A DNA stretch of 15,278 nucleotides, taken from Gallionellaceae bacterium. GTDB taxonomy: Bacteria; Pseudomonadota; Gammaproteobacteria; Burkholderiales; Gallionellaceae. Location of the stretch: NCBI GenBank assembly GCA_036523795.1, contig DATDDN010000106.1, positions 1-15,278 on the forward strand, in the 5' to 3' direction. Position numbers and translations under genes: made by a program. Below the pieces are notes generated by a model, which saw only the letters and a list, made by a program, of their open reading frames with translations, ran no database searches and was not told the DNA's origin. This document shows positions 1,421-15,278 of the stretch, piece by piece; the first letter of the stretch is position 1, and every line of letters starts with the position of its first letter.

Positions 1421-3016
1421 TCAGCCTTGCCGGATCGCATCGAACTCCAGCTCAAACCGGGCCAGATATTTGCGCAAGCGGTCGGCATCGTTGGCTTGCT
1501 TCTTCAACTGCCGGGATGCAGAGAACAGCTTGCGGCCAGCCTCTGACAGGCTGGTCGAGTTACGGCACACCTCGATGACCGTGTTGAGCTGGCAGCGATC
1601 GAACATGTCCAGCTCATGACTGCGCGCGCCCAGCACCTGTTCCGCCATATCTTGCTCGACAGGCTCTGCCCAGGCCGCGCGGAGGCGCTCGATTTCTTCC
1701 AGTACGACAGGCTCGGTCACCCGCCCGGCCTCGGCCAGCGTGGCCATGCGTGTCACCGAGGCGGTCAGCTCGCGGAAATTGCCTGGCCAGCGCGCCTCCG
1801 CCGACCGGGCAAAATCCAGATAACGCCGTTTGGCTTCGACATTGAAGCGCACGCGTTCGCCGCTTTCTCCCGCATAACGCTCCAGCTCGAAATCGAGGTT
1901 GGGCTCGATGTCCTCACCGCGCCGCGCCAGACCCAGCAAATCAAATTTCCACATATTGATCCGCGCATAGAGGTCTTCGCGGAACCGTCCTTCCGCCACC
2001 CATTGCTGCAGGTTGCGATGGGTGCCGGCAATCAGCTGGAAGTTGCTCTCCACCTCGCGGTCGCCGCCGAACGGGAAGAAGCGCTTCTCTTCAATGGCCT
2101 TGAGCAGCATGGCCTGTTCGTCCAGCCCCAGCTCGCCGATCTCGTCCAGAAACAGCAGCCCGTCGTCTGCGGCACGCAACAGCCCGGAGCGCTCGCTCTG
2201 TGCGCCGGTAAATGCGCCGCGCACATGTCCAAACAGACTGGACATGGCCGAATCGCCGCGCAGGGTGGCGCAGTTCACTTCGACAAACCTGCCGGACAGG
2301 CGCTGCCGCTGGCGCTTCAACTCATACACGCGGCGAGCCAGGAAAGACTTGCCGGCACCGGTGGGACCGACCAGCAGCATCGGTGCACGCGAACGGCTGG
2401 CGACCTGTTCGATGCGCTCTATGGTGCGGTTGAATTCGGCATTGCGCGTGGCGATACCCGCCTTGAGGAACACCAGCGATTCGTCGTGCTCGCGCGCAAA
2501 GCGCTGAGCAATCTTGTTGTAACGCGACAGATCGAGGTCGATGATTTCATAGCTGCCCACTGAATCGGCCTGCTCTTTCTTGCGCGGCGGCGAAGTTTGC
2601 AGCAGGCGCGCAGGCAGGTAGCGCGCCTCGGCCAGCAGGAACCAGCAGATCTGCGCCACGTGAGTGCCGGTGGTGATGTGGATCAGGTAATCCTCGTGCT
2701 CGATGTCGAACGGGTAGCTGCGCGCCAGGTCGTGCAGCATGGTGTAGACCTCTTCGAAATCCCACGGGTCGCGCAGTTCGATCTGCACCCTGCGCACCTC
2801 GGTCTCCGGCGAAACCGAGGCAATATCGCGGCTCACCCGTTCGGCCAGCGCCGTGCTGCGCGCATCGTGCAGCAGCTCGAAACGGCTCACCAGCAAGTCC
2901 TCCTGCTGGCACAGCGCCACACTGGGACGCCACTTCTCCCAGCGCCCCATGCCTTTGCCGCCATGATCCAGCTGAGTGCCAAGAAATCCGAAAACCACCA
3001 GTCGCTTTTTATCCAT
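1421..3016 (-). CDS. rtcR: Sigma-54-dependent transcriptional activator RtcR (N-terminal CARF-type regulatory domain, central AAA+ sigma-54 activation domain, C-terminal HTH)
   Basis: 531 aa. N-terminus MDKKRLVVFGFLGTQLDHGGKG matches the E. coli RtcR N-terminus pattern (MRKTVAFGFVGTVLDYAG). Central Walker A GPTGAGKS, the GAFTGA sigma-54 contact motif and Walker B LLFLDEIGEL are present. The gene is divergent from an rtcB/rtcA operon. Confidence 0.92.
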   Translation of the reverse strand: MDKKRLVVFGFLGTQLDHGGKGMGRWEKWRPSVALCQQEDLLVSRFELLHDARSTALAERVSRDIASVSPETEVRRVQIELRDPWDFEEVYTMLHDLARSYPFDIEHEDYLIHITTGTHVAQICWFLLAEARYLPARLLQTSPPRKKEQADSVGSYEIIDLDLSRYNKIAQRFAREHDESLVFLKAGIATRNAEFNRTIERIEQVASRSRAPMLLVGPTGAGKSFLARRVYELKRQRQRLSGRFVEVNCATLRGDSAMSSLFGHVRGAFTGAQSERSGLLRAADDGLLFLDEIGELGLDEQAMLLKAIEEKRFFPFGGDREVESNFQLIAGTHRNLQQWVAEGRFREDLYARINMWKFDLLGLARRGEDIEPNLDFELERYAGESGERVRFNVEAKRRYLDFARSAEARWPGNFRELTASVTRMATLAEAGRVTEPVVLEEIERLRAAWAEPVEQDMAEQVLGARSHELDMFDRCQLNTVIEVCRNSTSLSEAGRKLFSASRQLKKQANDADRLRKYLARFELEFDAIRQG

Positions 3017-3111
3017 TTGGATAATTTACTCGATATATATCTATATATTTCAAATTGTCGCACAAGCAACAGCTCTCGCGCTCGAAATTTTACTTATTAA
3101 ATATCATGCGG

Positions 3112-3124
3112 TTATCAATATTTT
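3112..3124. promoter_or_regulatory. IHF-like site (TATCAAtattTTc vs WATCAANNNNTTR) between rtcR and the sigma-54 promoter
   Basis: 12/13 match to the IHF consensus. It lies about 25 nt upstream of the -24 element, where IHF-mediated bending is usual for sigma-54 promoters. An alternating AT tract (cgatatatatctatatattt, 3031-3050) lies further upstream. Confidence 0.3.
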
Positions 3125-3142
3125 CTATCCAACACCCCGGGC

Positions 3143-3158
3143 TGGCACACATTTCGCT
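3143..3158 (+). promoter_or_regulatory. Sigma-54 (-24/-12) promoter, TGGCAC-N5-TCGCT, driving the + strand rtc-type operon
   Basis: Perfect -24 element TGGCAC (3143-3148). GC of the -12 element is at 3156-3157, with the canonical GG-N10-GC spacing. It is adjacent to, and divergent from, the sigma-54 activator gene rtcR. Predicted TSS near 3168-3170. Confidence 0.6.
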
Positions 3159-3285
3159 GTATTGCTGGTGATCGCGGCAAAGCCCCAAAGCCCACGGGCA
3201 GAGGTTGACTAGCCTCTCCGGTGCGCGCCATCCAGGCCCAGGCCGGTCGATGACGTGCATGCCGCTGCTGCAATGTGCGATCGCG

Positions 3286-3334
3286 GGGCAATCTCTGGTG
3301 AGCCCGCCGGGTTCGATTCCCGGATTGCCCACCA
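3286..3334 (+). ncRNA. tRNA-like minihelix: 7-bp acceptor stem (GGGCAAT/ATTGCCC), T-arm (CCGGG-TTCGATT-CCCGG), discriminator A and CCA; no D or anticodon arm
   Basis: Read directly from the sequence. A canonical T-loop TTCGATT is closed by a 5-bp GC stem. A perfectly complementary acceptor stem ends in ACCA at 3331-3334. Only 14 nt (ctctggtgagcccg) replace the D and anticodon arms. It sits in the operon leader downstream of the sigma-54 promoter. Confidence 0.45.
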
Positions 3335-3405
3335 CTGGATAGCTCATTGGGTAGAGCAATCGACTAATCATCGATCTGTCGCGGGTTCGACTCCCGCTCC
3401 ACTGT
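3333..3405 (+). ncRNA. tRNA-like cloverleaf (probable tRNA mimic of the Y-RNA/YrlA type, or a pseudo-tRNA); anticodon position reads AAU
   Basis: Full 73-nt cloverleaf. Acceptor CACTGGA/TCCACTG (6/7 bp, C3-C70 mismatch), U8 and A9. D-arm GCTC-ATTGGGTA-GAGC with G18 and G19. Anticodon arm ATCGA-CTAATCA-TCGAT with U33 but a pyrimidine at position 37 and A34. 5-nt variable loop. T-arm GCGGG-TTCGACT-CCCGC with T54, T55, C56 and A58. No encoded CCA. It overlaps the CCA of the preceding minihelix by 2 nt. Confidence 0.55.
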
Positions 3406-3643
3406 CCTTACACGACAGATATGCAACACCGTAGTACCCGCCGGTTGCGGAATGCGCAAGCACCCGCCGCCGTCCGGGCCGGGCCTGCTGCCACACCGCC
3501 GGCAAGGTCGACAGAAGCAGGAGCGGAATGCTGTGCCGTACGGCAGCACCCGCAAGCGCTCTGCCCAGACCTCCCCGGCCGTGCCGCAGCAGGCACCCGC
3601 CAGGATGGCGCCCGACCGGCACATTTATCGAGGAGAAAGCAAC

Positions 3644-4783
3644 ATGCTGAAACGTTATGTCATCAAGAAAAATGAAAAAGGTTTGCTGTACAAGGACGGC
3701 GACTTCGAGCGCGTCCTCTCTGCAGGCCGCCACCTGTTTGTTGACCCGCTGCGCCGCCTGTCGCTGCAGACTTACCGGATCGACACCCAGATGAACGATG
3801 TATCCCTGGTGGATTACCTGCTCAAGACTGCGCCTGCGCAGGCCAATGAGCACTTTGTGTGCATGGAGCTGGCAGAAGACGAGGCCGGCCTGCGCTATGA
3901 GAACGGCCTGCTGGTCGAGGTGCTGCCGCCTGCCGCACGTCGTGTGTTCTGGAAAGGACTGCTACAGCACCGCCTGGACAAGGCCGACCTGAAGCAGGGA
4001 TACGCGCTGGATGCCCCCCTTGCCGGCCGCCTGGTGCAGACCGGCTTGCGTGGCCGCGCCCTGACCGGACTGACCGGTCTGCTGGTGGTGCAGATTCCCG
4101 CTTACCACGTCGGCATCCTGAAGGTGAACGGCAAGGTACAGCGCGTCCTTGAGCCCGGAGTGGAAGCGTTCTGGCGCTTCAACCGCGAGATCGAGGTAGA
4201 GCTGGTGGACACCCGCCTGCAGAACATGGAAGTCAGCGGGCAGGAGATCCTGACTCACGACAAGGTGGGGCTGCGCCTCAACCTCGCCGCCACCTGGCGC
4301 TACACCGATGCGCTGCAGGCGTTCGAAAAGCTGGTGAAGCCTGCCGAGCACCTGTACCGCGAGCTTCAGTTCGTGCTGCGTGCCGCAGTCGGAACACGCA
4401 GCCTGGATGAGCTGCTGGAAAACAAGCAGGTGATCGACGAGCTGGTCATCGCCCACGTCACCCGCAAGTTCGCCGGCTTCGGCATCGAGGTGACCAGCGC
4501 CGGCGTGAAGGACATCGTGCTGCCGGGCGAGATGAAGACCATCCTCGCCCAGGTGGTGGAGGCCGAGAAGTCGGCGCAGGCCAATGTGATCCGTCGCCGC
4601 GAGGAGACCGCAGCCACCCGTTCGCTGCTGAACACCGCCAAGGTGATGGAGGACAACCCCACCGCCCTGCGACTGAAAGAGCTGGAAACACTGGAGCGCG
4701 TGGCCGAGCGTATCGACCGCATCAGCGTATTCGGTGGACTGGACCAGGTGCTGAATGGCCTGGTGCAGATTCGCGGCGACTAA
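3644..4783 (+). CDS. SPFH/band-7 (stomatin-prohibitin-flotillin-HflK/C) domain protein, 379 aa; no N-terminal transmembrane segment, so apparently cytoplasmic
   Basis: ATG at 3644 with RBS GAGGAG 8 nt upstream. Canonical SPFH core (…IPAYHVGILKVNGKVQRVLEPGVEAFWRF…QEILTHDKVGLRLNLAATWRYTD…SLDELLENKQVIDELVIAHVTRKFAGFGIEVTSAGVKDIVLPGEMK…) is followed by a predicted coiled-coil. The N-terminal ~50 aa (VIKKNEKGLLYKDGDFERVLSAGRHLFVDP) look like a second, partial copy of the SPFH N-terminal strand region. The ORF-track start at 3452 only adds an Arg/Pro-rich, low-complexity extension typical of GC-rich non-coding DNA. Confidence 0.8.
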   Translation: MLKRYVIKKNEKGLLYKDGDFERVLSAGRHLFVDPLRRLSLQTYRIDTQMNDVSLVDYLLKTAPAQANEHFVCMELAEDEAGLRYENGLLVEVLPPAARRVFWKGLLQHRLDKADLKQGYALDAPLAGRLVQTGLRGRALTGLTGLLVVQIPAYHVGILKVNGKVQRVLEPGVEAFWRFNREIEVELVDTRLQNMEVSGQEILTHDKVGLRLNLAATWRYTDALQAFEKLVKPAEHLYRELQFVLRAAVGTRSLDELLENKQVIDELVIAHVTRKFAGFGIEVTSAGVKDIVLPGEMKTILAQVVEAEKSAQANVIRRREETAATRSLLNTAKVMEDNPTALRLKELETLERVAERIDRISVFGGLDQVLNGLVQIRGD

Positions 4784-4788
4784 GCCAT

Positions 4789-4810
4789 GGGCACGCCTGA
4801 TTGCGTGCCC
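4789..4810 (+). other. Intercistronic perfect hairpin GGGCACGC-ctgatt-GCGTGCCC (8-bp stem) with no U-tract
   Basis: Seen directly, 6 nt after the SPFH stop (4781-4783) and 18 nt before the next start codon. No downstream T-run, so more likely an mRNA processing or stability element, or a partial attenuator, than a terminator. Confidence 0.4.
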
Positions 4811-4827
4811 ACTTACCGGAGAACATC

Positions 4828-5238
4828 ATGACAAGTGGAAAACAGCGGCGTGCAGCCATCAAGGCAGCACGTTTGCGCCGGGAATTCAGGCAACAAGCGG
4901 CATTACGTGAAACGACCATGCCATCCTTGCTGCCCTTGCATACCGCAGCCGTCAACCCGGCCTGCCTGGCACCCTACAACAGCTATGGCGAGCCGGATTT
5001 CGTCAACCGCGGTTACTATCAGGACCAGCCGTTCGTGTGCGTGGATTGCGGCGCACCGGGGGTATGGAGCGCGCAGCGGCAAAAATGGTGGTATGAAATA
5101 GCCAAGGGCAACGTCTGGTCCTGCGCCATCCGCTGCCCCACCTGCCGTGCGCGACGCCGCGCCATCAGCGCAGAAGGGCGCCGCACCTGGATGGAAGGCA
5201 TGAAACACAAGCAGGCTGCCTCGCAGCCTGCCAAATAA
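4828..5238 (+). CDS. Small basic zinc-ribbon protein (136 aa) with two CxxC pairs (CVDC…CPTC), function unknown
   Basis: ATG at 4828 with GGAGAA 6 nt upstream. N-terminus Lys/Arg-rich (MTSGKQRRAAIKAARLRREFRQQ). FVCVDCGAP…(28 aa)…CAIRCPTCR forms a 4-Cys Zn-ribbon-like motif. Tightly packed between the SPFH gene and rtcB: 13 nt to the rtcB start, versus 44 nt after the SPFH stop. Confidence 0.6.
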   Translation: MTSGKQRRAAIKAARLRREFRQQAALRETTMPSLLPLHTAAVNPACLAPYNSYGEPDFVNRGYYQDQPFVCVDCGAPGVWSAQRQKWWYEIAKGNVWSCAIRCPTCRARRRAISAEGRRTWMEGMKHKQAASQPAK

Positions 5239-5251
5239 CAAGGAAACAGTT

Positions 5252-6469
5252 ATGGAACATCAAATTCTCGAGGTAGCCCACGGCAAGCCGATCAAGATGT
5301 GGACCCAGGGGGTGCCCGTTGAAGACGAGGCACGCCAGCAACTGATGAACACGGCACGGATGCCGTTCATCTTCAGCCACATTGCCGTGATGCCGGACGT
5401 GCATCTGGGCAAGGGGTCGACCATCGGCAGCGTGATCCCCACCCGTGGCGCCATCATTCCGGCAGCCGTCGGCGTGGACATCGGCTGCGGCATGATGGCG
5501 GCGCGCACCTCGCTCAAGGCGAGCGACCTGCCAGACTATCTGCACGGCCTGCGCAGCGCTATCGAGCGGGCTGTGCCGCATGGCCGCACCAGCACACGCA
5601 GCGGGCGTGACAAAGGTGCCTGGGATACGCCGCCGACAAGCGTGGATGCAATGTGGGGTGAACTGGTACCGGGCTTCAAGCGCATCATCGAGAAGCACCC
5701 GCGCCTGGCCAAAACCAACAACCACAAGCACCTGGGAACGCTTGGAACCGGTAACCACTTCATCGAAGTGTGCCTGGACGAGACCGACACGGTGTGGTTC
5801 ATGCTGCATAGCGGTTCGCGTGGTGTCGGGAATGCCATCGGCACCCACTTCATCGAACTGGCCCAGGCCGACATGCGCCAGCACATTGCCAATCTCCCGG
5901 ATCGCGACCTCGCCTATTTCGAAGAAGGCAGCTCACACTTCGCCGATTATGTCGAGGCGGTGGGGTGGGCGCAGGATTACGCGCGGCGCAATCGTGCAGT
6001 GATGATGCAGAACGTGGTTGCGGCTGCACGCCAGGTGATCGCCAAGCCGTTCGATGCCAGCGTGGAAGCGGTGAATTGCCACCACAACTATGTGCAGAAG
6101 GAAACGCATTTCGGCAGTGAGATTCTGGTCACCCGCAAGGGAGCTGTGTCCGCGCGCAAGGGTGAGCTCGGCATCATTCCCGGCTCGATGGGGGCAAAAA
6201 GCTACATCGTGCGCGGACTCGGCAACGAGGAATCGTTCTGCTCGTGCAGCCATGGTGCCGGCCGTACCATGAGCCGCAATGAAGCAAAGCGCCGCTTTAC
6301 GCTGGAAGACCAGATCGGTGCGACGGCCCATGTGGAGTGCCGCAAGGACGAGGCAGTGATCGACGAAATCCCGATGGCCTACAAGGACATCGATGCCGTG
6401 ATGGAAGCGCAGCGCGCCCTGGTGGAAGTCGTGCATACCCTGCGTCAGGTGGTATGCGTGAAGGGATGA
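5252..6469 (+). CDS. rtcB: RNA-splicing ligase RtcB (3'-phosphate/5'-hydroxyl RNA ligase)
   Basis: 405 aa, collinear over its whole length with E. coli RtcB. Examples: KMWTQGVPVE, MPFIFSHIAVMPDVHLGKGSTIGSVIPT, HLGTLGTGNHFIE, NCHHNYV, GNEESFCSCSHGAGR, TLRQVVCVKG. RBS AAGGAAA. Confidence 0.96.
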   Translation: MEHQILEVAHGKPIKMWTQGVPVEDEARQQLMNTARMPFIFSHIAVMPDVHLGKGSTIGSVIPTRGAIIPAAVGVDIGCGMMAARTSLKASDLPDYLHGLRSAIERAVPHGRTSTRSGRDKGAWDTPPTSVDAMWGELVPGFKRIIEKHPRLAKTNNHKHLGTLGTGNHFIEVCLDETDTVWFMLHSGSRGVGNAIGTHFIELAQADMRQHIANLPDRDLAYFEEGSSHFADYVEAVGWAQDYARRNRAVMMQNVVAAARQVIAKPFDASVEAVNCHHNYVQKETHFGSEILVTRKGAVSARKGELGIIPGSMGAKSYIVRGLGNEESFCSCSHGAGRTMSRNEAKRRFTLEDQIGATAHVECRKDEAVIDEIPMAYKDIDAVMEAQRALVEVVHTLRQVVCVKG

Positions 6470-6488
6470 ACAATTTCAGGAGAAGGAT

Positions 6489-7316
6489 ATGCAACACAAC
6501 AAGCCCGCCATACTGAGTGCGCACCCCATCGCACCCGAGGTGCGACAGCGAGTCATGCAGGCACTCGACGACATCGAGGCCAGGCACGACGTGCAAGTGC
6601 TGTTCGCTTGCGAATCCGGCAGCCGCGGCTGGGGTTTCGCCTCGCCGGACAGCGACTACGATGTGCGCTTCGTATACACGCACCGGCTGCCCTGGTATTT
6701 GAACGTGGAGCCGCAGCGCGATGTGATCGAACTGCCGATCAGCGACGAGCTGGACGTGAGCGGCTGGGAGCTGCGCAAAGCCTTGCGGCTGCTGCGCAGA
6801 TCCAATCCGACCCTGCTGGAATGGCTGGACTCGCCCGTGGTCTATCGCGAGAATCCGGCCGCAGCGGCACGCATGCGTACGCTCGCGCCGGATTTCTTTT
6901 CCAGGCTCAGCGTGCGCTACCACTATCTGGCGATGGCGAAGAAGAACTTTCGCGGCTATCTGCAGGGAGAGTCGGTGCGTCTGAAGAAATACCTGTATGT
7001 ATTGCGGCCCCTGCTCGCAGTGCGCTGGATAGACCGTGGCGGCGGAATGCCGCCCATGCGCTTTGCCGAGCTGGCGGATGCCATGCTTGATGACCTGCCC
7101 CTGCTGGGCGAGATCAATCGGCTGCTCGCCATCAAGATGCAGGCCAACGAGGCGGAATACAGCCCGCGCTGGCCGCTGGTGCACGCATTTATCGTCAGCG
7201 AACTGGAAAAGGTCGAGCGGCAGCTTGACTACAAAAAACCCGTGGGTGACTCGGGCGCGCTGGACCGATTTCTGGCGGATACCGTGCTGTCCTTCACGGC
7301 ACAGCAACTGATTTGA
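6489..7316 (+). CDS. Pol-beta-superfamily nucleotidyltransferase (GS…DxD minimal NTase; from memory it resembles the RtcB-linked RlaP/PF10127-type family)
   Basis: 275 aa. Motif FACESGSRGWGFASPDSDYDVRFVY is the GS-X9-13-DxD nucleotidyltransferase signature. RBS AGGAGAAGG. It lies between rtcB (stop 6469) and rtcA (start 7328) with 19 and 11 nt spacers, so it is an operon member. Confidence 0.85.
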   Translation: MQHNKPAILSAHPIAPEVRQRVMQALDDIEARHDVQVLFACESGSRGWGFASPDSDYDVRFVYTHRLPWYLNVEPQRDVIELPISDELDVSGWELRKALRLLRRSNPTLLEWLDSPVVYRENPAAAARMRTLAPDFFSRLSVRYHYLAMAKKNFRGYLQGESVRLKKYLYVLRPLLAVRWIDRGGGMPPMRFAELADAMLDDLPLLGEINRLLAIKMQANEAEYSPRWPLVHAFIVSELEKVERQLDYKKPVGDSGALDRFLADTVLSFTAQQLI

Positions 7317-7327
7317 GGTAACAAGAA

Positions 7328-8341
7328 ATGAAATTTCTGCTTCTCGATGGCGCCCACGGTGAAGGGGGCGGCCAGATCCTGCGCAGCGCGCTCACGCTTT
7401 CGATGATCACCGGACAGCCGTTCCGCATCGAGCGCATTCGCGCCGGGCGCAACAAGCCTGGCCTGTTGCGCCAGCACCTGACCGCAGTCAATGCTGCCGC
7501 CAGCATCTGCTCTGCAAGGGTCGGCGGCAATGCTGCCGGTTCGCAAACGCTGGAATTCATTCCCGGCCGCGTCAAGGGCGGGGATTACCGGTTTGACATC
7601 GGCACCGCCGGCAGTTGCACCTTGGTGCTGCAGACCGTGCTGCCCGCCTTGTGGTTTGCCGATCAGCCCAGCAGCCTGACCGTCAGCGGCGGCACGCACA
7701 ACGCTGCCGCGCCGCCGGCTGATTTTCTGATGCGCACCTGGCTGCCCGCGATGCAGCGCATGGGCGTCGACACGCATCTCGAGCTGCTGCGGCACGGCTT
7801 CTATCCGGCCGGAGGTGGCGCGGTACGCGCCAGCGTGCGTCCGCTAGCCGCCCTGCAGCCCTTGCACATGACGGAGCCCGGCCGCTCGGCTTCGGTACAG
7901 GCCATCGCCATAGTCGCCGCGTTGCCGGGCGATATTGCACGGCGCGAACTGACACGCCTGCGGCATCATTTCCCGGAGGCTGCGGAAGAAATGCGCGTGC
8001 TCGATGCCCGCGAAGGCCCGGGCAATGTGGTCATGCTCGAAGTGGCGCGCGACAATCACCGCGAGATTTTCAGTGCCTTCGGCGAGCGTGGCGTGAAGGC
8101 CGAGCTGGTCGCCGAACGCGCGGCCGGAGAGGCGCTACGCTACCTGGCCAGCAGGGCCTGCGTCAGCGAGCACCTGGCCGACCAGCTGGTGCTGCCCCTC
8201 GCACTGGCGGGTGGCGGCAGCTTTACGACCACGACGGTGTCGTCGCACCTTGCCAGCAACATGCAGGTCCTCCAGAAGTTCCTGCCGGTCGGGTTTGAGA
8301 TAACGCAGAACGGGGATATCCCGCAGATCGTTGTGCGATAA
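7328..8341 (+). CDS. rtcA: RNA 3'-terminal phosphate cyclase RtcA
   Basis: 337 aa. LDGAHGEGGGQILRSALTLSMITGQPFRIERIRAGRNKPGLLRQHLTAV… and GSCTLVLQTVLPALWFAD…LLRHGFYPAGGG…ADQLVLPLALAGGG are collinear with E. coli RtcA. Confidence 0.94.
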   Translation: MKFLLLDGAHGEGGGQILRSALTLSMITGQPFRIERIRAGRNKPGLLRQHLTAVNAAASICSARVGGNAAGSQTLEFIPGRVKGGDYRFDIGTAGSCTLVLQTVLPALWFADQPSSLTVSGGTHNAAAPPADFLMRTWLPAMQRMGVDTHLELLRHGFYPAGGGAVRASVRPLAALQPLHMTEPGRSASVQAIAIVAALPGDIARRELTRLRHHFPEAAEEMRVLDAREGPGNVVMLEVARDNHREIFSAFGERGVKAELVAERAAGEALRYLASRACVSEHLADQLVLPLALAGGGSFTTTTVSSHLASNMQVLQKFLPVGFEITQNGDIPQIVVR

Positions 8342-8515: not shown

Positions 8516-9631
8516 ATGTCCGAAAAGCTCATCCACATCGTCGATCACCGTCCCGGCATCCGCATGCCGCGGCTGGCTGGCGCGCTGGAGCAGCCCAGCG
8601 GTTCACTGCGCGACAGCCGTGGCCGCCTGCTGCAGGACCTGCGCATCTCGCTCACCGACCGCTGCAACTTCCGTTGCGTGTACTGCATGCCGAAGGAAAC
8701 CTTCGACAAGGATCACGTGTTCCTGCCGCGCAGCTCGCTGCTCAGCTTCGAAGAGATCGAGCGCATCGCGCGCATCTTCGTGGCGCATGGCGTGCACAAG
8801 ATCCGCCTCACCGGCGGCGAGCCGCTGCTGCGCAAGCACATCGAACAGCTGATTGAGCGCCTGGCACAACTGCGCACCCCGGACGGCCTGCCGCTCGACC
8901 TTACCCTCACCACCAATGGCTCACTGCTGGCGAAGAAGGCACGTGCCTTGAAAGACGCCGGGCTGAGCCGTGTCACCGTGTCGCTCGACTCGCTCGACGA
9001 CACCATCTTCCGCCGCATGAACGACGTCGACTTCCCCGTGTCGGAAGTGCTGCATGGCCTGGAAGCCGCGCACGAAGCCGGCCTCGGCCCGATCAAGGTG
9101 AACATGGTGGTGAAGGGCGGCATGAACGACCAGGAGATCGTGCCGATGGCGCGCTACTTCAAGGGCTCGCCGTTCATCCTGCGCTTCATCGAATACATGG
9201 ACGTCGGCACTTCCAACGGCTGGAAGATGGATGAGGTGATTCCCTCCGCCGAAGTGGTGCGCCGCATCCACGCCGAACTGCCGCTGGAAAAACTTGACCC
9301 CAACCAGCCCAGCGAAACCGCCGCGCGCTGGCGCTATGCCGATGGCTCCGGCGAGATCGGCGTCATCTCCAGCGTGACCCAGAGCTTCTGCCACGAATGC
9401 ACCCGAGCCCGCCTCTCCACCGAAGGTGTGTTGTACCACTGCCTGTTTGCCAGCGAAGGCCATGACCTGCGCGCCCTGCTGCGCGACGGCAGCAGCGACG
9501 AGGCCATCTCCAGCATCATCGCCCAGCTGTGGCGCGCGCGCAGCGACCGCTATTCCGAACTGCGCAGCCAGCAGACCGAGTACGCCGCACCCGAGCGCAA
9601 GCGGGTGGAGATGTCGTATATCGGTGGCTAA
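8516..9631 (+). CDS. moaA: GTP 3',8-cyclase MoaA (radical-SAM, molybdenum cofactor biosynthesis)
   Basis: The [10 protein letters not shown] radical-SAM cluster motif, …LTGGEPLL…, and the C-terminal [21 protein letters not shown]…MSYIGG match E. coli MoaA. An alternative in-frame GTG start at 8510 (MTMSEK) is possible. Confidence 0.93.
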
Positions 9632-9799
9632 CCCCTCCACCAGCCATTTCCCGCTCTAGTTACAAGCAGCAGCCTTCATCGCATGGCGTATACTCGGCTG
9701 ATTTCTCGATTGATAATTCGAGCCTGGCCCCTTTGATTCACTAGACTCTCTTCGGCTGGCAACTTATAGATTTTTTGACCAACGGTCGCAGAGGTAGAA

Positions 9800-10036
9800 A
9801 TGCAGGCCAAGAAAAATAAAATTTACGCAACAAGTAAGAGAGTTAAATCCGCGCTCGTTGGCATAACCAAACATATGATGCTCAATTATATTTTGTTTAA
9901 TTATGTTGATAAGAATAAATGGGTTGATGAGCTGAAAGCGTCTTTTGGAGTTCCATTTGTCGACAATCGAACAGATTTCAACTACTCGAAGTGTTTTTTT
10001 ACTGCATTAATCAAAGAGGCCTTGAACTTGGTTTAA
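9800..10036 (+). CDS. Hypothetical protein, 5' part of a low-GC gene that appears split by a -1 frame change at a T7 run
   Basis: ATG with RBS GAGGTAGAA. GC content drops sharply (about 35% vs about 65% in the surroundings). The ORF ends 36 nt after the run TTTTTTT (9994-10000). The downstream ORF continues in the -1 frame from the same run. Confidence 0.4.
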   Translation: MQAKKNKIYATSKRVKSALVGITKHMMLNYILFNYVDKNKWVDELKASFGVPFVDNRTDFNYSKCFFTALIKEALNLV

Positions 10037-10392
10037 CTTCTAGCCAGTTTTATGAGTACTTGCAGGAGCACGGGATATTGGATCGCGTGTTTATACAAAT
10101 TTCTACACTTGCTCCATTTGTAACCTATGAATACATGCAATATCAATTTATAAAAAACGATGCGCCTGGAATACATAAGAACCGACAAATTCATTTAAAG
10201 AGAAATCCTAGCCCTAACAATGAATTCAAAAAATTCGTTGAGTCCGGGATGCAGAAATTTTGCGAGGATAACGAACTCTATATTCTCGAAGATCAGGATT
10301 TGCGCATGAGAGTTGAAGGGGTATCGTTAGAGTTGTCAAAAGATCAAGCGACAGTTTTCAATTTTTTCTTTGACGACGAGAGCAAGGAATAG
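9991..10392 (+). CDS. Hypothetical protein, 3' part of the same low-GC gene (-1 frame relative to 9800..10036)
   Basis: Open frame of 133 aa with no recognisable motif. Its in-frame start codon is only a GTG inside the T-run, so the 3' part is more plausibly read by frameshift from the upstream ORF than started independently. Confidence 0.4.
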   Translation: MFFYCINQRGLELGLTSSQFYEYLQEHGILDRVFIQISTLAPFVTYEYMQYQFIKNDAPGIHKNRQIHLKRNPSPNNEFKKFVESGMQKFCEDNELYILEDQDLRMRVEGVSLELSKDQATVFNFFFDDESKE

Positions 10393-10517
10393 TTGTCGGC
10401 ACAATTGGAACCTACCTTGCGTTGTGCGTGTAAAGGTGCTGAATCTCCAACGCCCAATTTCAATGGACCGGATTAGAGGGTCGAATCTGCGCCAATCAGC
10501 ATAGTGTGCGCATTAAC

Positions 10518-12258: not shown

Positions 12259-14094
12259 GAACAGGGGATGCTCGGGAAAGGCGGTCTGCACCAGCACTTC
12301 GCCCGGCTTGTCGGCACGGCCGGCGCGACCGGCCACCTGTGACAGCTGGGCGAACAGTTTTTCCGAGGCGCGAAAGTCGCTGCTGTACAGCGCGCTATCC
12401 GGGTTGAGCACGCCCACCAGGGTGAGGTTCGGAAAGTCGTGACCCTTGGCCAGCATCTGGGTGCCCACCAGGATGTCCACCGCATCATCCTGGATCTTCT
12501 TGCGCATGGCGGCCCAGCTGCCCTTGTTGCGCGTGCTGTCGCGATCCACCCGCAGGATTCTGGCCTCAGGGAAGTGTGCCTGCAGCGCCGCCTCGATGCG
12601 CTGGGTGCCGATGCCGACCGGCTGCAGGTCGGTGTTGCCGCAGGAGGGACAGGCGTGCGGCACGCGCTGCTGATGGCCGCAGTGGTGGCAGCGCAGGCGG
12701 CGGTCCCTCAGGTGCAACACCAGCTTGCCCGCGCAATGGGGGCAGCCGGACAGCCAGCCGCAGGCGGTGCACATCAGCACCGGCGCATGGCCGCGGCGGT
12801 TGATGAACACCAGGCTTTGTTCCTTGCGCTGCAGGCGCTCACCCAGGGCGGCGAGCAGGGCCGGCGTCATGCCTTCGTGCAGCGGCACGGTGGTGGTGTT
12901 GAGGCAGCGCACCTCGGGCAGGCGCGCCTGCTGGTTGGCGCGCTGGCGCAGCGGCAGCAGGGTGTAGCGCCCGCTGTGCGCGTTGTGCCAGCTTTCCAGC
13001 GAGGGGGTGGCCGAGCCGAGCACGATGGGGACCGATCTTTGATTCGCTCGGAAGATGGCCACGTCGCGCGCCGAATAGCGCAGGCCGTCCTGCTGCTTGA
13101 ACGAGGCATCATGCTCTTCGTCCACGATGATCAGGCCCAGCTCGGGTAGCGGAGTGAATACTGACAGGCGGGTGCCCAGCACGATGCGCGCCTGCCCCGA
13201 CTGCGCGCGCAACCAGTTCTGTGTGCGCTCACCCTCGCTGAGGCCGCTGTGCAGGCTGACCAGCTCGGTCTGCGGGAAGCGGCTCTGGAAGTAATGCTCC
13301 AGCTGCGGGGTGAGGTTGATCTCAGGCACCAGCAGCAGCACTTGGCCACTGCGCTGCAGGAAGTGGTGCATCAGGTGCACGTAGACTTCGGTCTTGCCGC
13401 TGCCGGTGATGCCGTACAGCAGGAAGCTGGCATAGCCTGCGGAGCGGGTGACGGGGTCGACCGCCTGTTGCTGTTCGTCGGTGAGGGTGTGGGCGTTTTC
13501 AAACGCGACTTGGGTGAGTTCGCCCGCTGCCTTGGCATGCTCAGGCGACGATGTTGGCGCACACTCCCGAGCCCAACCGGTTTCCAGCAATGCCTTCAGT
13601 GTGGCCATCGCACTGGGCGAGAGCGCACGCACCTGCTGCGCGCCCAGCGGGCCGGCCTGCAGGGCCGCCAGGATGCGGTGCTGGACCACCTTGCGCTTGG
13701 GCAGCTGCGCCAGATCGAGCGCGCGTCCTGCTTCACTCAGTTCATAAGTCAGCGCCCGCTTCAGCGTGACAGGCTCGCCGCTGCGCACGCGCGCAGGCAG
13801 CGCGGCAAGTACGGTCATACCGAGTGGATGCTGGTAATAGTCGCTACAGAAGCGCAGCAGCTTGAGCAGGTCGGCGGGCAACGGCGGCACGTCGTCCAGC
13901 ACTTGCTGCACCGCTTTGATGCGCTCGGCGGGAACATCGGTTTCACTCAGGCACTCAAGCACCACGCCGACCATCTGCTGGCGGCCGAACGGCACCAGCA
14001 CGCGTTGCCCCACCACTGCAGTGAAATTTTCCGGCAGAAAATAATCAAACAGTGTTGACAGCGGCACGTCGAGTGCAACGCGAACAAAATTCAT
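11890..14094 (-). CDS. priA: Primosomal protein N' (replication-restart helicase PriA)
   Basis: 734 aa. N-terminus MNFVRVALDVPLSTLFDYFLPE (E. coli [22 protein letters not shown]). Walker A GITGSGKTEVY, DEEHD, the Cys-rich Zn-binding region CTACGWLSGCPHCAGKL…CHHCGHQQRVPHACPSCG, and a C-terminal …LDVDPLDF. Confidence 0.95.
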   Translation of the reverse strand: MNFVRVALDVPLSTLFDYFLPENFTAVVGQRVLVPFGRQQMVGVVLECLSETDVPAERIKAVQQVLDDVPPLPADLLKLLRFCSDYYQHPLGMTVLAALPARVRSGEPVTLKRALTYELSEAGRALDLAQLPKRKVVQHRILAALQAGPLGAQQVRALSPSAMATLKALLETGWARECAPTSSPEHAKAAGELTQVAFENAHTLTDEQQQAVDPVTRSAGYASFLLYGITGSGKTEVYVHLMHHFLQRSGQVLLLVPEINLTPQLEHYFQSRFPQTELVSLHSGLSEGERTQNWLRAQSGQARIVLGTRLSVFTPLPELGLIIVDEEHDASFKQQDGLRYSARDVAIFRANQRSVPIVLGSATPSLESWHNAHSGRYTLLPLRQRANQQARLPEVRCLNTTTVPLHEGMTPALLAALGERLQRKEQSLVFINRRGHAPVLMCTACGWLSGCPHCAGKLVLHLRDRRLRCHHCGHQQRVPHACPSCGNTDLQPVGIGTQRIEAALQAHFPEARILRVDRDSTRNKGSWAAMRKKIQDDAVDILVGTQMLAKGHDFPNLTLVGVLNPDSALYSSDFRASEKLFAQLSQVAGRAGRADKPGEVLVQTAFPEHPLFRALIAHDYEAWARTLLAEREQAGFPPFVFQALLRAEGKNEGEVYAFMQQAHAAATAVQGEVEVYGVVPAAMPKRANHYLVQLLVQAATRKALQQFLRAWKPQLDALPAQKLRWSLDVDPLDF

Positions 14095-14179
14095 TTTGCT
14101 AAATTTTTTTCCGGTGATTTCTTCATTATTCAGCCGACGCTGTTGACTGAATTGGAGTTTTTATCTTACCCACACAATC

Positions 14180-14188
14180 TGTGGATAA
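14180..14188 (-). promoter_or_regulatory. Consensus DnaA box TTATCCACA (minus-strand orientation) in the priA upstream region
   Basis: The + strand reads TGTGGATAA at 14180-14188, a perfect 9-mer about 90 nt upstream of the priA start. A single box, so regulatory significance is uncertain. Confidence 0.3.
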
Positions 14189-14311
14189 CTATGTGTGTAA
14201 TCTTAAAATAACTCGGCTAACTACCCATGCCGTATACAGTTTTTTCTGTATGCCTGTTTTGCGAGCAGCCGCAGATATTTTTTAAATTCAATAGCTTGCC
14301 TACAAATGGTA

Positions 14312-14341
14312 GAGGCCGCAGGAAAAATCTCCTGCGGCCTC
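14312..14341 (-). terminator. Perfect 12-bp inverted repeat GAGGCCGCAGGA-aaaatc-TCCTGCGGCCTC downstream of hemE; probable (U-tract-poor) terminator or RNA stability hairpin
   Basis: Seen directly. Lies 48-77 nt past the hemE stop on the minus strand. The downstream U-tract is weak (CCAUUUGU), so it may be a rho-dependent pause or stabiliser rather than a classic intrinsic terminator. Confidence 0.45.
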
Positions 14342-14388
14342 TGCTGTATTCCCGTGCTTGTGCATAAGCGCGGGCTTGTCAAGCACGA

Positions 14389-15278
14389 TTAATGGTATTT
14401 ACGGCTGAGCTCATGCACTGCGGCCACTAGGGCTGCGGCATTGGCCGGGTCGGTAAATTGCGAGATGCCATGGCCGAGGTTGAACACGTGGCCGCTGCCG
14501 AAACCGTAACTGGCCAGGATTTTTTCCACTTCGTCGTTGATGACTTCCGGATTGGAAAACAGCACGGCGGGGTCGAGGTTGCCCTGCAAGGCCACCTTCT
14601 GGCCAACGCGCTGACGTGCCACGCCGATGTCCATGGTCCAGTCCAGGCCGACCGCATCGCAGCCGATGTCGGCGATGCTGTCTATCCACAGACCCCCGCC
14701 CTTGGTGAACACGATGGAGGGGATGCGCACGCCGTCCTTCTCCTTCTTCAGGCCCTGTACGATGCGCTGCATATAGGCCAGGGAGAACTGATGGTAGGCC
14801 GCGTGCGACAGCGCGCCGCCCCAGGAATCGAAAATCATCACGGCCTGCGCGCCGGCGTCGATCTGCGCATTGAGGTACTGCGTCACCGCTTCGGCGGTTA
14901 CCGCCAGCACGTGGTGCATCAGCGCCGGTTCCTTGTACATCAGGGTTTTGACGCGAGCATAGTCGGAGCTGCTGCCGCCTTCCACCATGTAGCAGGCCAG
15001 CGTCCACGGGCTGCCGGAAAAGCCGATCAGCGGCACGCGGCCGTCCAGCGCCTTGCGGATCTCGGACACGGCGTCGGTGACGTAGCGCAGATCCTTGTCG
15101 ATGTCGGGCAGGCGCAGCGCCTTGATGGCGGCTTCGTCATGCAGCGGGTGCTTGAACTTGGGGCCTTCGCCTTCGGTGAAGTACAGGCCGAGACCCATCG
15201 CATCGGGCACGGTGAGGATGTCGGAGAACAGGATGGCGGCATCCAGCGGGAAACGGTCCAGCGGCTGCAGGGTCACCT
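14389..15278 (-). CDS. hemE: Uroporphyrinogen decarboxylase HemE (C-terminal ~296 aa; the 5' end lies right of the window)
   Basis: …[33 protein letters not shown]…[19 protein letters not shown]…[25 protein letters not shown]…HVFNLGHGI…SRKYH is collinear with E. coli HemE. The frame stays open to the window edge. Confidence 0.93.

Follow-up and report, generated by a model that had tools for sequence, protein, structure and literature searches.

RNA-repair (Rtc) operons are widespread and have non-coding RNAs associated with them. Minihelices that consist of a tRNA acceptor stem stacked on a T-stem and end in NCCA are substrates of bacterial RNase P, of the CCA-adding enzyme and of some aminoacyl-tRNA synthetases. 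Within RtcB operons that encode a Band-7 protein, Burroughs and Aravind (NAR 2016) predicted a cognate RNA of that protein, the b7a-tRNA, a prediction made without experimental validation (10.1101/312249); our literature search returned no experimental data on an association of b7a-tRNA with the Band-7 protein. YrlA, an analogous tRNA mimic, is modified by TruB and DusA, and its counterpart in M. smegmatis undergoes RNase P cleavage and CCA addition (10.1101/312249). Here we describe a genomically encoded tRNA minihelix that lies directly beside a b7a-tRNA in a Gallionellaceae bacterium; throughout, the window denotes the whole stretch of DNA that was analysed (15,278 nt).

Results

The minihelix is a 49-nt element (window 3286-3334, (+) strand) within the ~475-nt leader of a Band-7 operon that diverges from rtcR (Table 1). 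It lies immediately upstream of the RtcB-linked Band-7/SPFH gene, the location expected of the b7a-tRNA system, and, as originally predicted, it stands in tandem with the next tRNA-like element, both being inside the operon leader. The C-terminal half of the Band-7 protein resembles stomatin/HflK, and three beta modules are predicted in its N-terminal residues 1-190. Scanning ten open reading frames of the window against Pfam revealed neither Ro60/TROVE nor an integrase. Two side observations concern the Band-7 protein: it gave one Foldseek match to the human vault cage, and, read as a cage protein, its parts would be three beta modules at the N terminus, the SPFH domain and one long helix.

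Table 1. Features of the rtcR/Band-7 locus (window coordinates)
Feature	Position	Strand	Basis or remarks
rtcR (RtcR/CARF N-domain + sigma-54 AAA+ activator)	1421-3016	-	Pfam RtcR 1.6e-87, Sigma54_activat 7.8e-50
Sigma-54-type promoter TGGCAC-N5-TCGC	3143-3157	+	Sole match in window; predicted transcription start near 3168-3170
Two conserved 5' leader hairpins	~3194-3222, ~3223-3258	+	RNAalifold, 16 loci
Single-stranded block ATGCCGC	3259-3265	+	Invariant in aligned leaders
Minihelix acceptor stem, 5' strand GGGCAAT	3286-3292	+	Pairs with 3324-3330; 7/7 pairs covary across loci
Minihelix connector CTCTGGTGAGCCCG	3293-3306	+	14 nt; candidate vestigial D-arm and variable region
Minihelix T-arm CCGGG-TTCGATT-CCCGG	3307-3323 (3307-3311, 3312-3318, 3319-3323)	+	Conservation, outer-pair covariation
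Minihelix acceptor stem, 3' strand ATTGCCC	3324-3330	+	Discriminator A 3331, encoded CCA 3332-3334
b7a-tRNA-like cloverleaf (module B)	3333-3405	+	ARAGORN tRNA-Ile(AAU); Rfam tRNA 53.2 bits (3333-3405/3407)
Small hairpin CUGUC-N7-GACAG	3402-3418	+	Directly 3' of module B; overlaps last 3 nt of nominal acceptor strand
Long irregular hairpin, ~180 nt	3440-3620	+	RNAalifold; ends 10 nt before Band-7 ribosome-binding site
Band-7 ribosome-binding site GAGGAG	3630-3635	+	ATG at 3644
Operon Band-7(SPFH)-zf-RtcB-RlaP-RtcA	3644-8341	+	Pfam matches
Band-7/SPFH 'slipin' protein	3644-4783	+	Pfam
zf_Tbcl protein	4801-5238	+	Pfam
RtcB	5252-6469	+	Pfam
RlaP NTase	6489-7316	+	Pfam
RtcA	7328-8341	+	Pfam

Reading the sequence directly, we arrived at the parsing of the original prediction, which had recognised the 'top half' of a tRNA: the minihelix shares with a canonical tRNA the 7-bp acceptor stem, the 5-bp T-stem, a TTCRANN loop and a discriminator followed by CCA, with a 14-nt connector between the acceptor 5' strand and the T-arm. 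It does not form the canonical four-arm cloverleaf, and the tRNA called by ARAGORN and Rfam (RF00005) lies at 3333-3405/3407 rather than at 3286-3334. Moreover, it combines the features of a minimal RNase P substrate, namely a 12-bp acceptor/T stack, a T-loop, a 3' NCCA and a 5' leader, a resemblance that speaks to substrate-likeness alone.

Thermodynamic folding recovered part of this structure. The 49-mer folded with a z-score of -3.0 relative to dinucleotide shuffles, and nearest-neighbour folding of the isolated 49-mer kept the acceptor stem, with an alternative inner pairing that outcompetes the T-arm (-25 vs -20.1 kcal/mol); the thermodynamic fold of the whole leader confirmed the acceptor stem and likewise replaced the T-arm by another pairing in the MFE structure. 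Since the MFE inner pairing is not conserved, we did not take it to be the biological fold. Folding alone thus fails to predict the T-arm, and it is conservation that argues for it: GGGTTCGAnnCCC is invariant among orthologues, and the outer T-stem pair covaries (CG 25, UG 8, GC 5, UA 5). The connector had been proposed to replace the D and anticodon arms; its 14 nt indeed form no cloverleaf, but it is not featureless, since it could fold into a 3-bp mini-hairpin (CUC at 3293-3295 with GAG at 3300-3302) that encloses the loop UGGU and is followed by CCCG. The variants seen in related loci (CUC/GAG, CCC/GGG, UUC/GAA, ACC/GGU and GAG/CUC) suggest that this GG-containing hairpin may be kept and may resemble a vestigial D-arm; a shuffle test that accepts any 3-bp hairpin in the connectors gave no discrimination (24/32 observed vs 23/32 shuffled).

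Comparison among loci provided further evidence for the structure. A covariance model built from 10 other loci, with the window left out, returned a single match on the window, at exactly 3286-3334 (56.6 bits, E 4e-11). Across an alignment of 46 distinct sequences, 96.7% of cells are paired and double changes are found at 7/7 acceptor pairs, which are the compensatory changes that the original prediction had named as a check and which favour the structure; the covariation score is 0.485, whereas shuffles gave 0.136, with 0/500 attaining the observed value, and slid registers gave 0.06-0.10. The element also keeps its position: it recurs at the same place in >60 species-level loci from several orders, two T-arms 60-83 nt apart stand just upstream of the Band-7 gene in 68 of 81 sequences (the window and 80 genome loci), and a 9-nt spacer separates the minihelix stem from U8 of module B in most loci. 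Scanning metagenomes for the junction motif, with no requirement on gene context, gave 120 loci, ~68 of them with a nearby Band-7 homologue (24-67% identity in the tblastn table); at 52 non-redundant metagenome loci, a Band-7 homologue lies 200-700 nt downstream on the same strand. Together, these data leave us in little doubt that the minihelix is a real RNA helix maintained by selection.

The slot occupied by the minihelix, which we call module A, holds RNAs of graded size. Firstly, in Pseudomonas and many distant lineages it is a full cloverleaf whose acceptor stem has 7 bp and is often followed by ACCA, and whose anticodon stem is capped by a tetraloop; secondly, in Burkholderiales it is an intermediate form, a stub capped by a GNRA tetraloop; thirdly, in Rhodocyclales and Gallionellaceae it is cut down to the minihelix. 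Mini, intermediate and full forms occupy one and the same slot, and where the minihelix has its connector other lineages carry a GNRA-capped stem or full D and anticodon arms. The minihelix is real, and it is not a free-standing element but very probably a reduced homologue of this full tRNA-like module: the Gallionellaceae and Rhodocyclales would have lost the anticodon arm and most of the D-arm, leaving the acceptor/T coaxial stack, a GG-containing stub and, in the window, an encoded ACCA. Module A is missing in loci L048 and L060 and has its T-arm replaced by an unrelated hairpin in L005, so that some lineages can do without it. At L061 it is module B that has degenerated, next to an intact minihelix and ACCA. 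Candidate culturable hosts are Azonexus caeni, Azovibrio restrictus, Niveibacterium terrae and Formivibrio citricus for the minihelix form and Pseudomonas nitroreducens/citronellolis for the full form.

The neighbouring cloverleaf differs from module A at its acceptor end. Its D-arm, anticodon arm (loop CUAAUCA) and T-arm are canonical, and its anticodon is not conserved across loci. The conserved acceptor helix is limited to UGGA (3336-3339)/UCCA (3398-3401), with acceptor positions 4-7 paired in 34-35 of 35 loci and 1:72 in 3 of 35, and the module closes on its own 3' strand, TGGA/TCCA covarying with TCGA/TCGA. The minihelix had been thought to overlap this cloverleaf, and the ARAGORN/Rfam tRNA call does share 2 nt with the minihelix CCA; since the conserved acceptor stem of module B is only 3-5 bp long, the two elements adjoin but abut rather than truly overlap. 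CCA follows module B at 0/35 mini-type loci, 1/62 non-redundant genome loci and 1/52 Band-7-linked metagenome loci. Right after the 7-bp stem of module A, NCCA is present at 18/35 mini-type and 8/13 intermediate-type loci (26/48 non-redundant loci together) and at 18/47 Band-7-linked metagenome loci, against a naive expectation of ~1/64. The encoded CCA that had been recognised in the window is thus present and enriched but not universal, being absent at about half of the loci and from nearly all full-cloverleaf module A forms in Pseudomonas. Module A, in short, holds a canonical 7-bp stem with NCCA at about half of loci, and the b7a-tRNA has a 3-5-bp acceptor stem and almost never a CCA.

The operon nucleotidyltransferase, RlaP, had been suggested to act on the 3' end of the minihelix. 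We found no association of the minihelix or of NCCA with the presence of RlaP, mini-type modules occurring at 16 loci with RlaP and at 11 without it. According to published biochemistry (PMC12776372), the acceptor 3' end of a folded tRNA mimic is a less preferred site for RlaP than the 3'-OH of a break in the anticodon loop. Because mini-type modules also occur without RlaP, and in light of this substrate preference, the suggestion is not supported.

The surrounding leader is itself a conserved RNA. TGGCA and GC of the sigma-54 site are invariant in 16 aligned orthologous leaders, and neither a sigma-70-like promoter nor a terminator-like site was found in 2950-3750; the minihelix is probably part of a sigma-54-dependent leader transcript. 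The Burkholderiales operon has no adjacent rtcR, and the TGGCAC motif was not seen in the one leader read (L072), so this model is not universal. Leader helices 1-2 are 94-96% paired, with compensatory changes at 14/22 pairs, and helices 3-7 of the long hairpin comprise 43 pairs, of which 28 show compensatory changes, with 92-100% of cells paired. A comparable hairpin of 200-250 nt was seen, in single-sequence MFE folds only, at 12 loci whose Band-7 proteins are 35-46% identical; by eye, CTGTCC..GACAG of the small hairpin is kept in most aligned loci. Apart from the tRNA at 3333-3405, no part of the leader matched any Rfam family at or above its gathering threshold, and permissive thresholds added only weak, sub-threshold similarities to YrlA, Deinococcus Y RNA and mascRNA.

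Discussion

On balance we lean towards reading the minihelix as module A of a conserved pair of tRNA-like RNAs in the Band-7(SPFH)/RtcB leader, a processed mimic of the tRNA elbow and acceptor that works with the b7a-tRNA. RtcR and the sigma-54 promoter would give rise to one transcript carrying the minihelix, module B, the flanking hairpins and the operon mRNA; the 12-bp acceptor/T stack with NCCA would serve as a minimal bacterial RNase P substrate; and a stable, CCA-ended tRNA top half would be set free by a cut at the minihelix 5' end together with a cut, or trimming, in the very short stretch that separates it from module B. The minihelix and b7a-tRNA would then supply tRNA elbow and acceptor surfaces, and with these they may partner the Band-7 oligomer and the repair enzymes as a scaffold, decoy or recruitment handle made of RNA, by analogy with YrlA and Ro60/Rsr. 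Judged from its sequence, RNase P-type processing of the minihelix is plausible; that the minihelix is both processed and trans-acting as a component of an RNP we infer more tentatively, as possible rather than probable.

A purely cis-acting role would explain several of the same observations. The minihelix could be an RNase P/RNase E entry or a protective structure, and so determine where the operon mRNA begins and how stable it is, the freed fragment being functionless: it always lies inside the leader, in fixed order with other covarying hairpins and with no independent promoter or terminator (2950-3750), the operon is kept where module A is lost (L048, L060), and tRNA-like structures are known as processing signals, as in mascRNA/MALAT1 (cited in 10.1101/312249). 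A mere structural block, however, would need neither NCCA enrichment nor an exact 7-bp stem, two different tRNA-like modules are kept side by side over large phylogenetic distances, and the analogous YrlA acts in trans; we regard this explanation as rather unlikely.

The series from full cloverleaf to stub, to minihelix, to absence could instead reflect the decay of a functionless remnant, a pseudogene of the full module A under deletion, as could the replaced T-arm of L005 and the CCA missing at many loci. We consider decay highly improbable, as 7/7 acceptor pairs are compensated, pairing in helix 1 reaches 95%, the T-loop is invariant over dozens of genera, spacing to module B is fixed, and the aligned loci are not recent horizontal copies, their stem sequences differing at every position.

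We give very little credence to the idea that the minihelix is half of a YrlA-like circularly permuted tRNA domain, its T-arm and the D-arm of the next element flanking an acceptor hairpin that is closed. Rfam does give a weak match to YrlA (17.8 bits, E 0.63) that joins the T-arm at 3307-3323 to the D-arm at 3340-3357, and the T-arm-to-D-arm spacing equals that of true YrlA-type loci that the same pattern recovered (such as L131 and L140, which lie beside RtcB). The score is nevertheless far under the gathering threshold of 69, no hairpin can be formed by the 16 nt that separate the arms, the partner of the minihelix 3' strand is the 5' strand upstream of it, as full covariation shows, and module B is closed by its own 3' strand.

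It is also very doubtful that the minihelix is aminoacylatable, or a molecule like the tRNA-like domain (TLD) of tmRNA, with a dedicated synthetase to charge it. In favour of charging, its architecture is shared by known minihelix substrates and by that domain, and tmRNA is reported to be the most frequent RtcB ligation target in E. coli (PMC9650030, via PMC11090510). Against it, 1:72, 2:71, 3:70 and the discriminator vary freely between loci with no conserved G3:U70, CCA is often absent, and ARAGORN returned one tRNA and no tmRNA on the window. An aminoacylation identity for the minihelix was considered and rejected, no identity elements being conserved among the loci.

Finally, a chance tRNA fragment or a relic of integration into a tRNA gene, already doubted in the original prediction, can be dismissed: tRNA 3' ends with CCA are common att sites and the one Burkholderiales locus read (L072) has an HNH endonuclease gene between a nearby tRNA array and the leader, but the acceptor stem has both of its strands, which covary, the element's placement relative to Band-7 is the same in >60 loci from different genera, the window contains no recognisable integrase, and the minihelix is very probably a reduced form of a module that elsewhere is a full cloverleaf.

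Returning to the minihelix as a partner of the b7a-tRNA, Band-7-type Rtc operons carry two tRNA mimics with complementary features, not one. Module A has an acceptor end of canonical form that often carries CCA, and its anticodon arm can be lost, and module B has a full body and a stub acceptor stem; the candidate tRNA surfaces are thereby narrowed to the elbow and acceptor end for module A and the elbow and anticodon stem for module B. The minihelix is also a concrete, mutable target in culturable hosts, and as a naturally encoded, conserved tRNA top half it bears on the idea that minihelices are units of tRNA able to function autonomously. Taken in its entirety, the leader is a large RNA with covarying structure that, tRNA at 3333-3405 aside, lies outside Rfam gathering-threshold matches. 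More speculatively, and in our estimate improbably, the minihelix, the short-stemmed b7a-tRNA and the ~180-nt hairpin might form a ~450-nt multi-module cognate RNA of a soluble SPFH cage protein, with the minihelix also released alone as a CCA-ended RNA; the assembly would be a bacterial RNP like those of Y RNA or vault RNA that presents or sequesters damaged tRNAs for RtcB/RtcA, and the tandem pair would be the kind of duplication intermediate that lies behind the permuted YrlA.

Among described systems, the b7a-tRNA is the nearest: the cloverleaf at 3333-3405 is the b7a-tRNA, and the minihelix shares its type of locus, its transcript and its derivation from tRNA. The minihelix is nonetheless a separate upstream module without an anticodon arm or canonical D-arm, and it differs from the b7a cloverleaf in having a canonical acceptor stem of 7 bp and, frequently, NCCA; the description of b7a-tRNA as bearing a strong likeness to a genuine tRNA (10.1101/312249) holds for 3333-3405 and not for the minihelix. 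YrlA (RF02553) is likewise a tRNA-like module of RtcR/RtcB operons (rsr-yrlBA-rtcBA), with a conserved T-loop/D-loop elbow and the same T-arm-to-D-arm spacing, and a role as RNA cofactor has been proposed for it, with a protein that forms a ring or cage. It differs in being a single permuted module in which the acceptor hairpin is closed and a stem binds Ro60, whereas two open tandem modules are found here and none of the six genes identified in the window encodes Ro60. The tRNA-like domain of tmRNA also combines an acceptor stem, T-arm and reduced D region with a 3' CCA and no anticodon arm; the minihelix, unlike tmRNA, has no mRNA-like domain, pseudoknots or conserved G3:U70, and is embedded in an mRNA leader. 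The mascRNA/MEN-beta tRNA-like RNAs (RF01684) are small tRNA-like structures that RNase P/Z frees from within a longer transcript and that are then given CCA; their model aligned to the acceptor and T-arm of the minihelix with 18.7 bits (E 0.47), below the gathering threshold of 42.5, and as they are eukaryotic and lie at the 3' end of a lncRNA the resemblance is one of analogy, not homology. Synthetic minihelices, lastly, have the same 12-bp coaxial stack, T-loop, discriminator and CCA, but those are laboratory constructs, whereas the minihelix described here is genomically encoded, conserved, and retains a connector of 12-17 nt.

A covarying tRNA top half in tandem with the b7a-tRNA

Reading positions 3000–3720 reproduced base for base the predicted parsing of the 49-nt minihelix at 3286–3334, which lies within the 627-nt gap between rtcR and the Band-7 operon. 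Using the Band-7 protein as query, with one genome per species, we retrieved 80 loci (62–79% protein identity) from Rhodocyclales, Accumulibacter, Azonexus, Thiobacillus, Burkholderiales and Pseudomonas. In 68 of 81 sequences (the window and the 80 loci), two T-arms lie 60–83 nt apart just 5′ of the Band-7 gene, and complementary 7-mers bracket the first, their sequence changing from genus to genus: GGGCAAT/ATTGCCC, GAGTGGC/GCCACTC, GTGCGAG/CTCGCAC, GGTCATG/CATGACC, CGACGTT/AACGTCG and GGTGCCG/CGGCACC.

Coordinates of the minihelix and its neighbours in the window
Feature	Position	Strand	Basis or annotation
Acceptor 5′ strand GGGCAAT	3286–3292	+	Sequence reading
Connector CTCTGGTGAGCCCG, 14 nt	3293–3306	+	Sequence reading
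T-arm CCGGG-TTCGATT-CCCGG	3307–3323	+	Sequence reading
Acceptor 3′ strand ATTGCCC	3324–3330	+	Sequence reading
Discriminator A; encoded CCA	3331; 3332–3334	+	Sequence reading
rtcR	1421–3016	-	RtcR/CARF N-domain and sigma-54 AAA+ activator domain
Sigma-54-type site TGGCACacattTCGC	3143–3157		Single site; invariant in orthologous leaders
Band-7/SPFH protein	3644–4783	+	Operon
zf_Tbcl protein	4801–5238	+	Operon
RtcB ligase	5252–6469	+	Operon
RlaP nucleotidyltransferase	6489–7316	+	Operon
RtcA cyclase	7328–8341	+	Operon

A covariance model built from ten loci, with the window left out, returned one match in the window, at exactly 3286–3334 (56.6 bits, E = 4e-11), and about 40 other full-length copies at the equivalent position. 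Standard pairs fill 96.7% of cells in the resulting alignment, and the comparison of orthologous loci that the original prediction had proposed revealed compensatory changes, with both sides altered, at all seven acceptor pairs. The covariation score was 0.485, against 0.136 for shuffles (0 of 500 reached 0.485) and 0.06–0.10 for slid registers, in an alignment that is model-fitted and biased towards the structure; a register-free listing of the loci gives the same picture. A selected acceptor/T-arm helix, often with an encoded CCA, thus stands in fixed tandem with the b7a-tRNA, bearing out the claim of a tRNA top half abutting the next tRNA-like element. Chance, neutral decay and the alternative of an att relic of a tRNA gene are refuted, because the paired 7-mers covary at the equivalent position across loci, in the register-free listing as well.

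The 49-mer folds more stably than shuffles (z = -3.0); its minimum free energy structure, at -25 kcal/mol against -20.1 for the tRNA-like fold, retains the acceptor stem and swaps the T-arm for other pairing. Connectors in the window's clade possibly start with a 3-bp hairpin with GG in its loop (variants CUC-UGGU-GAG, CCC-GUCGG-GGG, UUC-AUCGG-GAA, ACC-GUCGG-GGU and GAG-GUUGG-CUC), and by the criterion of any 3-bp hairpin, shuffles did not differ discriminatingly from real connectors. Its resemblance to a shrunken D-arm suggests that it could still touch the T-loop.

Three grades of the upstream module

Among the genome loci, the slot 5′ of the b7a-tRNA (module B) holds three grades of an upstream module A: a full cloverleaf in Pseudomonas and some Zoogloeaceae, with D-arm TAGCTCAG..GGTAGAGC and an anticodon stem that often ends in a UUCG-type loop; an intermediate form in Burkholderiales, with a G-rich stretch of ~9 nt and a 3–4-bp stem capped by GCAA, GTAA or GCGA; and the minihelix in a Rhodocyclales/Gallionellaceae group, with a connector of 12–17 nt. 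Scanning metagenome contigs, regardless of gene context, for the pattern "T-arm, 13–19 nt, GGATAGCTCA" yielded 120 loci. A tblastn table placed a Band-7 homologue (24–67% identity) near ~68 of them, and in 52 non-redundant loci it lies 200–700 nt downstream on the same strand; among the other matches are true tandem tRNAs and RNAs of the YrlA type. In most of these distant, Band-7-linked metagenome loci, module A takes the full cloverleaf form, with a 7-bp stem and frequently ACCA. From these sequences, the minihelix appears to be the reduced form of a second tRNA-like module.

Departures from this layout are lineage-specific: L048 and L060 lack module A (about 2600–2665), its T-arm is replaced by an unrelated hairpin in L005 (about 2620–2660), and in L061 (2641–2762) the minihelix and ACCA are intact beside a degenerate module B, which has a UUCG-capped stem and no TAGCTCA D-arm.

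Division of features between the two modules

The b7a-tRNA is the predicted cognate RNA of Band-7 in RtcB operons (Burroughs & Aravind, 2016, as described in 10.1101/312249). ARAGORN and Rfam revealed one tRNA-like cloverleaf in the window (3333–3405/3407; tRNA-Ile(AAU), 53.2 bits), with a C:C mismatch at 3:70 and C37, whose nominal 5′ end shares 2 nt with the minihelix CCA. Module A has a canonical 7-bp stem. Among non-redundant loci, NCCA (discriminator base plus encoded CCA) comes directly after this stem in 18/35 of the mini type and 8/13 of the intermediate type; the figures are only 1/14 for full-type genome loci and 18/47 for Band-7-linked metagenome loci. Module B conserves its D, anticodon and T arms, and its acceptor helix is effectively UGGA/UCCA: positions 4–7 are paired in 34–35 of the 35 mini-type loci, 1:72 in 3 and 2:71 in 11, while CCA occurs 3′ of it in none of these 35, in 1 of all 62 tallied genome loci and in 1 of 52 metagenome loci. 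Since 9 nt separate the end of the module A stem from U8 of module B in most loci, NCCA directly adjoins the short helix of module B. The nominal module B acceptor strand of the window shares its last three bases with the start of a conserved hairpin, CUGUC..GACAG (3402–3418), which fits a short acceptor helix there too. The module B acceptor stem measures 3–5 bp, with an A-rich 3′ tail (UCCAAAAC).

The anticodon loop of module B is hypervariable (CAU, AAU, GAU, AAC, GUU, UGU, GGU, UUU, CCG, ACG, or short loops). This variation extends to close relatives, yet the loops often look genuine (CUCAUAA, CUGAUAA, CUGUUAA, UUUUUGA/UUUUUAA-type Lys loops); Pseudomonas has short UUCG-like loops instead. 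Because module A can do without its anticodon arm, while its acceptor end is the best conserved in the system, we argue that module A may supply an acceptor/elbow surface and module B an elbow/anticodon-stem surface.

Operon and leader RNA

A conserved sigma-54 site precedes the minihelix, whose association with Band-7 genes holds across wide distances. Neither a sigma-70-like promoter nor a terminator-like site was detected between rtcR and the Band-7 gene; given this lone conserved site, the minihelix would most simply be part of a ~475-nt 5′ leader on an RtcR-dependent transcript. RNAalifold of 16 leaders predicted two 5′ hairpins (about 3194–3258) and a long hairpin of ~180 nt (3440–3620), whose 65 pairs show 94.6% pairing, 42 of them with compensatory changes; the covariation score was 0.459 versus ~0.07 in slid registers, for a structure derived from the same alignment. 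A similar long hairpin appeared in single-sequence minimum free energy folds of 12 loci whose Band-7 proteins are only 35–46% identical. No Rfam family matched the leader RNA at or above its gathering threshold. On this comparative evidence, the minihelix is probably one of several domains that make up a large, conserved leader RNA. Along 3169–3643 the order is 5′ hairpins, invariant ATGCCGC (3259–3265), two tRNA-like modules, a small hairpin and the long hairpin, which has conserved internal motifs (GGCA(A/G)GG opposite CCUCCCC).

Nine Burkholderiales loci (L056, L062, L064, L065, L068, L072, L074, L077 and L078) have no rtcR within 3 kb 5′ of the Band-7/RtcB operon; there, a same-strand array of 1–9 ordinary tRNA genes (about 800–1900 of each locus) stops ~800–900 nt short of module A. 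The array and the leader of L072 are separated by an HNH-endonuclease-like ORF, and a TGGCAC motif is not seen there.

No membrane segment is obvious in the Band-7 protein, whose AlphaFold model (mean pLDDT 70.6; 85–90 for residues 1–190) predicts three beta modules of five strands each, followed by an SPFH domain and a long helix. Elsewhere in the window, itself an entire contig from a Gallionellaceae MAG, two patches have low GC (9500–10500 and 14000–14500; 0.41–0.48 versus ~0.62 elsewhere). The first, perhaps a small island acquired between moaA and priA, holds a 133-aa ORF (9991–10392) with only a weak DUF3791 match; a 265-aa ORF beyond the rtcR 3′ end (530–1327) has no Pfam or NCBIfam match.

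Possible processing and function

Bacterial RNase P accepts a 12-bp acceptor/T stack with NCCA as a minimal substrate. In the proposed processing of the minihelix, given the tiny spacer, a cut or trim at the 5′ side of module B would leave a 2–5-nt tail, from N to NCCA, which a CCA-adding enzyme could complete where needed. Going by the YrlA/Ro60 analogy and by the original b7a-tRNA proposal, such processed RNAs might serve the Band-7 oligomer and the repair enzymes as tRNA-shaped partners, decoys or handles. Variation at all identity positions makes specific aminoacylation unlikely. The idea that the operon nucleotidyltransferase, RlaP, acts on the minihelix 3′ end found no backing: mini-type modules occur in 16 RlaP-positive and 11 RlaP-negative operons, with no clear link to NCCA. 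RlaP prefers a 3′-OH at an anticodon-loop break over the acceptor 3′ end, on a folded substrate (PMC12776372).

Comparison with YrlA and other tRNA-like RNAs

A later paper notes that the predicted b7a-tRNA lacks experimental validation and that it is regarded as a functional counterpart of YrlA, a Y RNA that mimics tRNA (10.1101/312249). The searchable papers, a set outside which the 2016 primary description falls, make no mention of a minihelix or tandem module in the Band-7–RtcB system. Membership tests placed the minihelix outside tRNA, YrlA, tmRNA and mascRNA, and it adjoins the b7a-tRNA cloverleaf class without being a member. YrlA-type RNAs have a closed acceptor hairpin between T-arm and D-arm, as in L131 and L140, two compared loci in which they adjoin RtcB. 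The junction pattern also retrieves such RNAs, in L131 (about 6100–6200), L140 (about 1000–1110), L085, L097 and L106; L131 and L140 lack Band-7. This shared pattern explains the weak YrlA match of the window. The T-arm-to-D-arm spacing of YrlA-type RNAs equals that of the module A/B junction, which suggests that the tandem pair could be a duplication intermediate of a permuted YrlA. Among the tRNA-like RNAs of RtcB repair operons, the minihelix is best placed as a new variant that is reduced in form.
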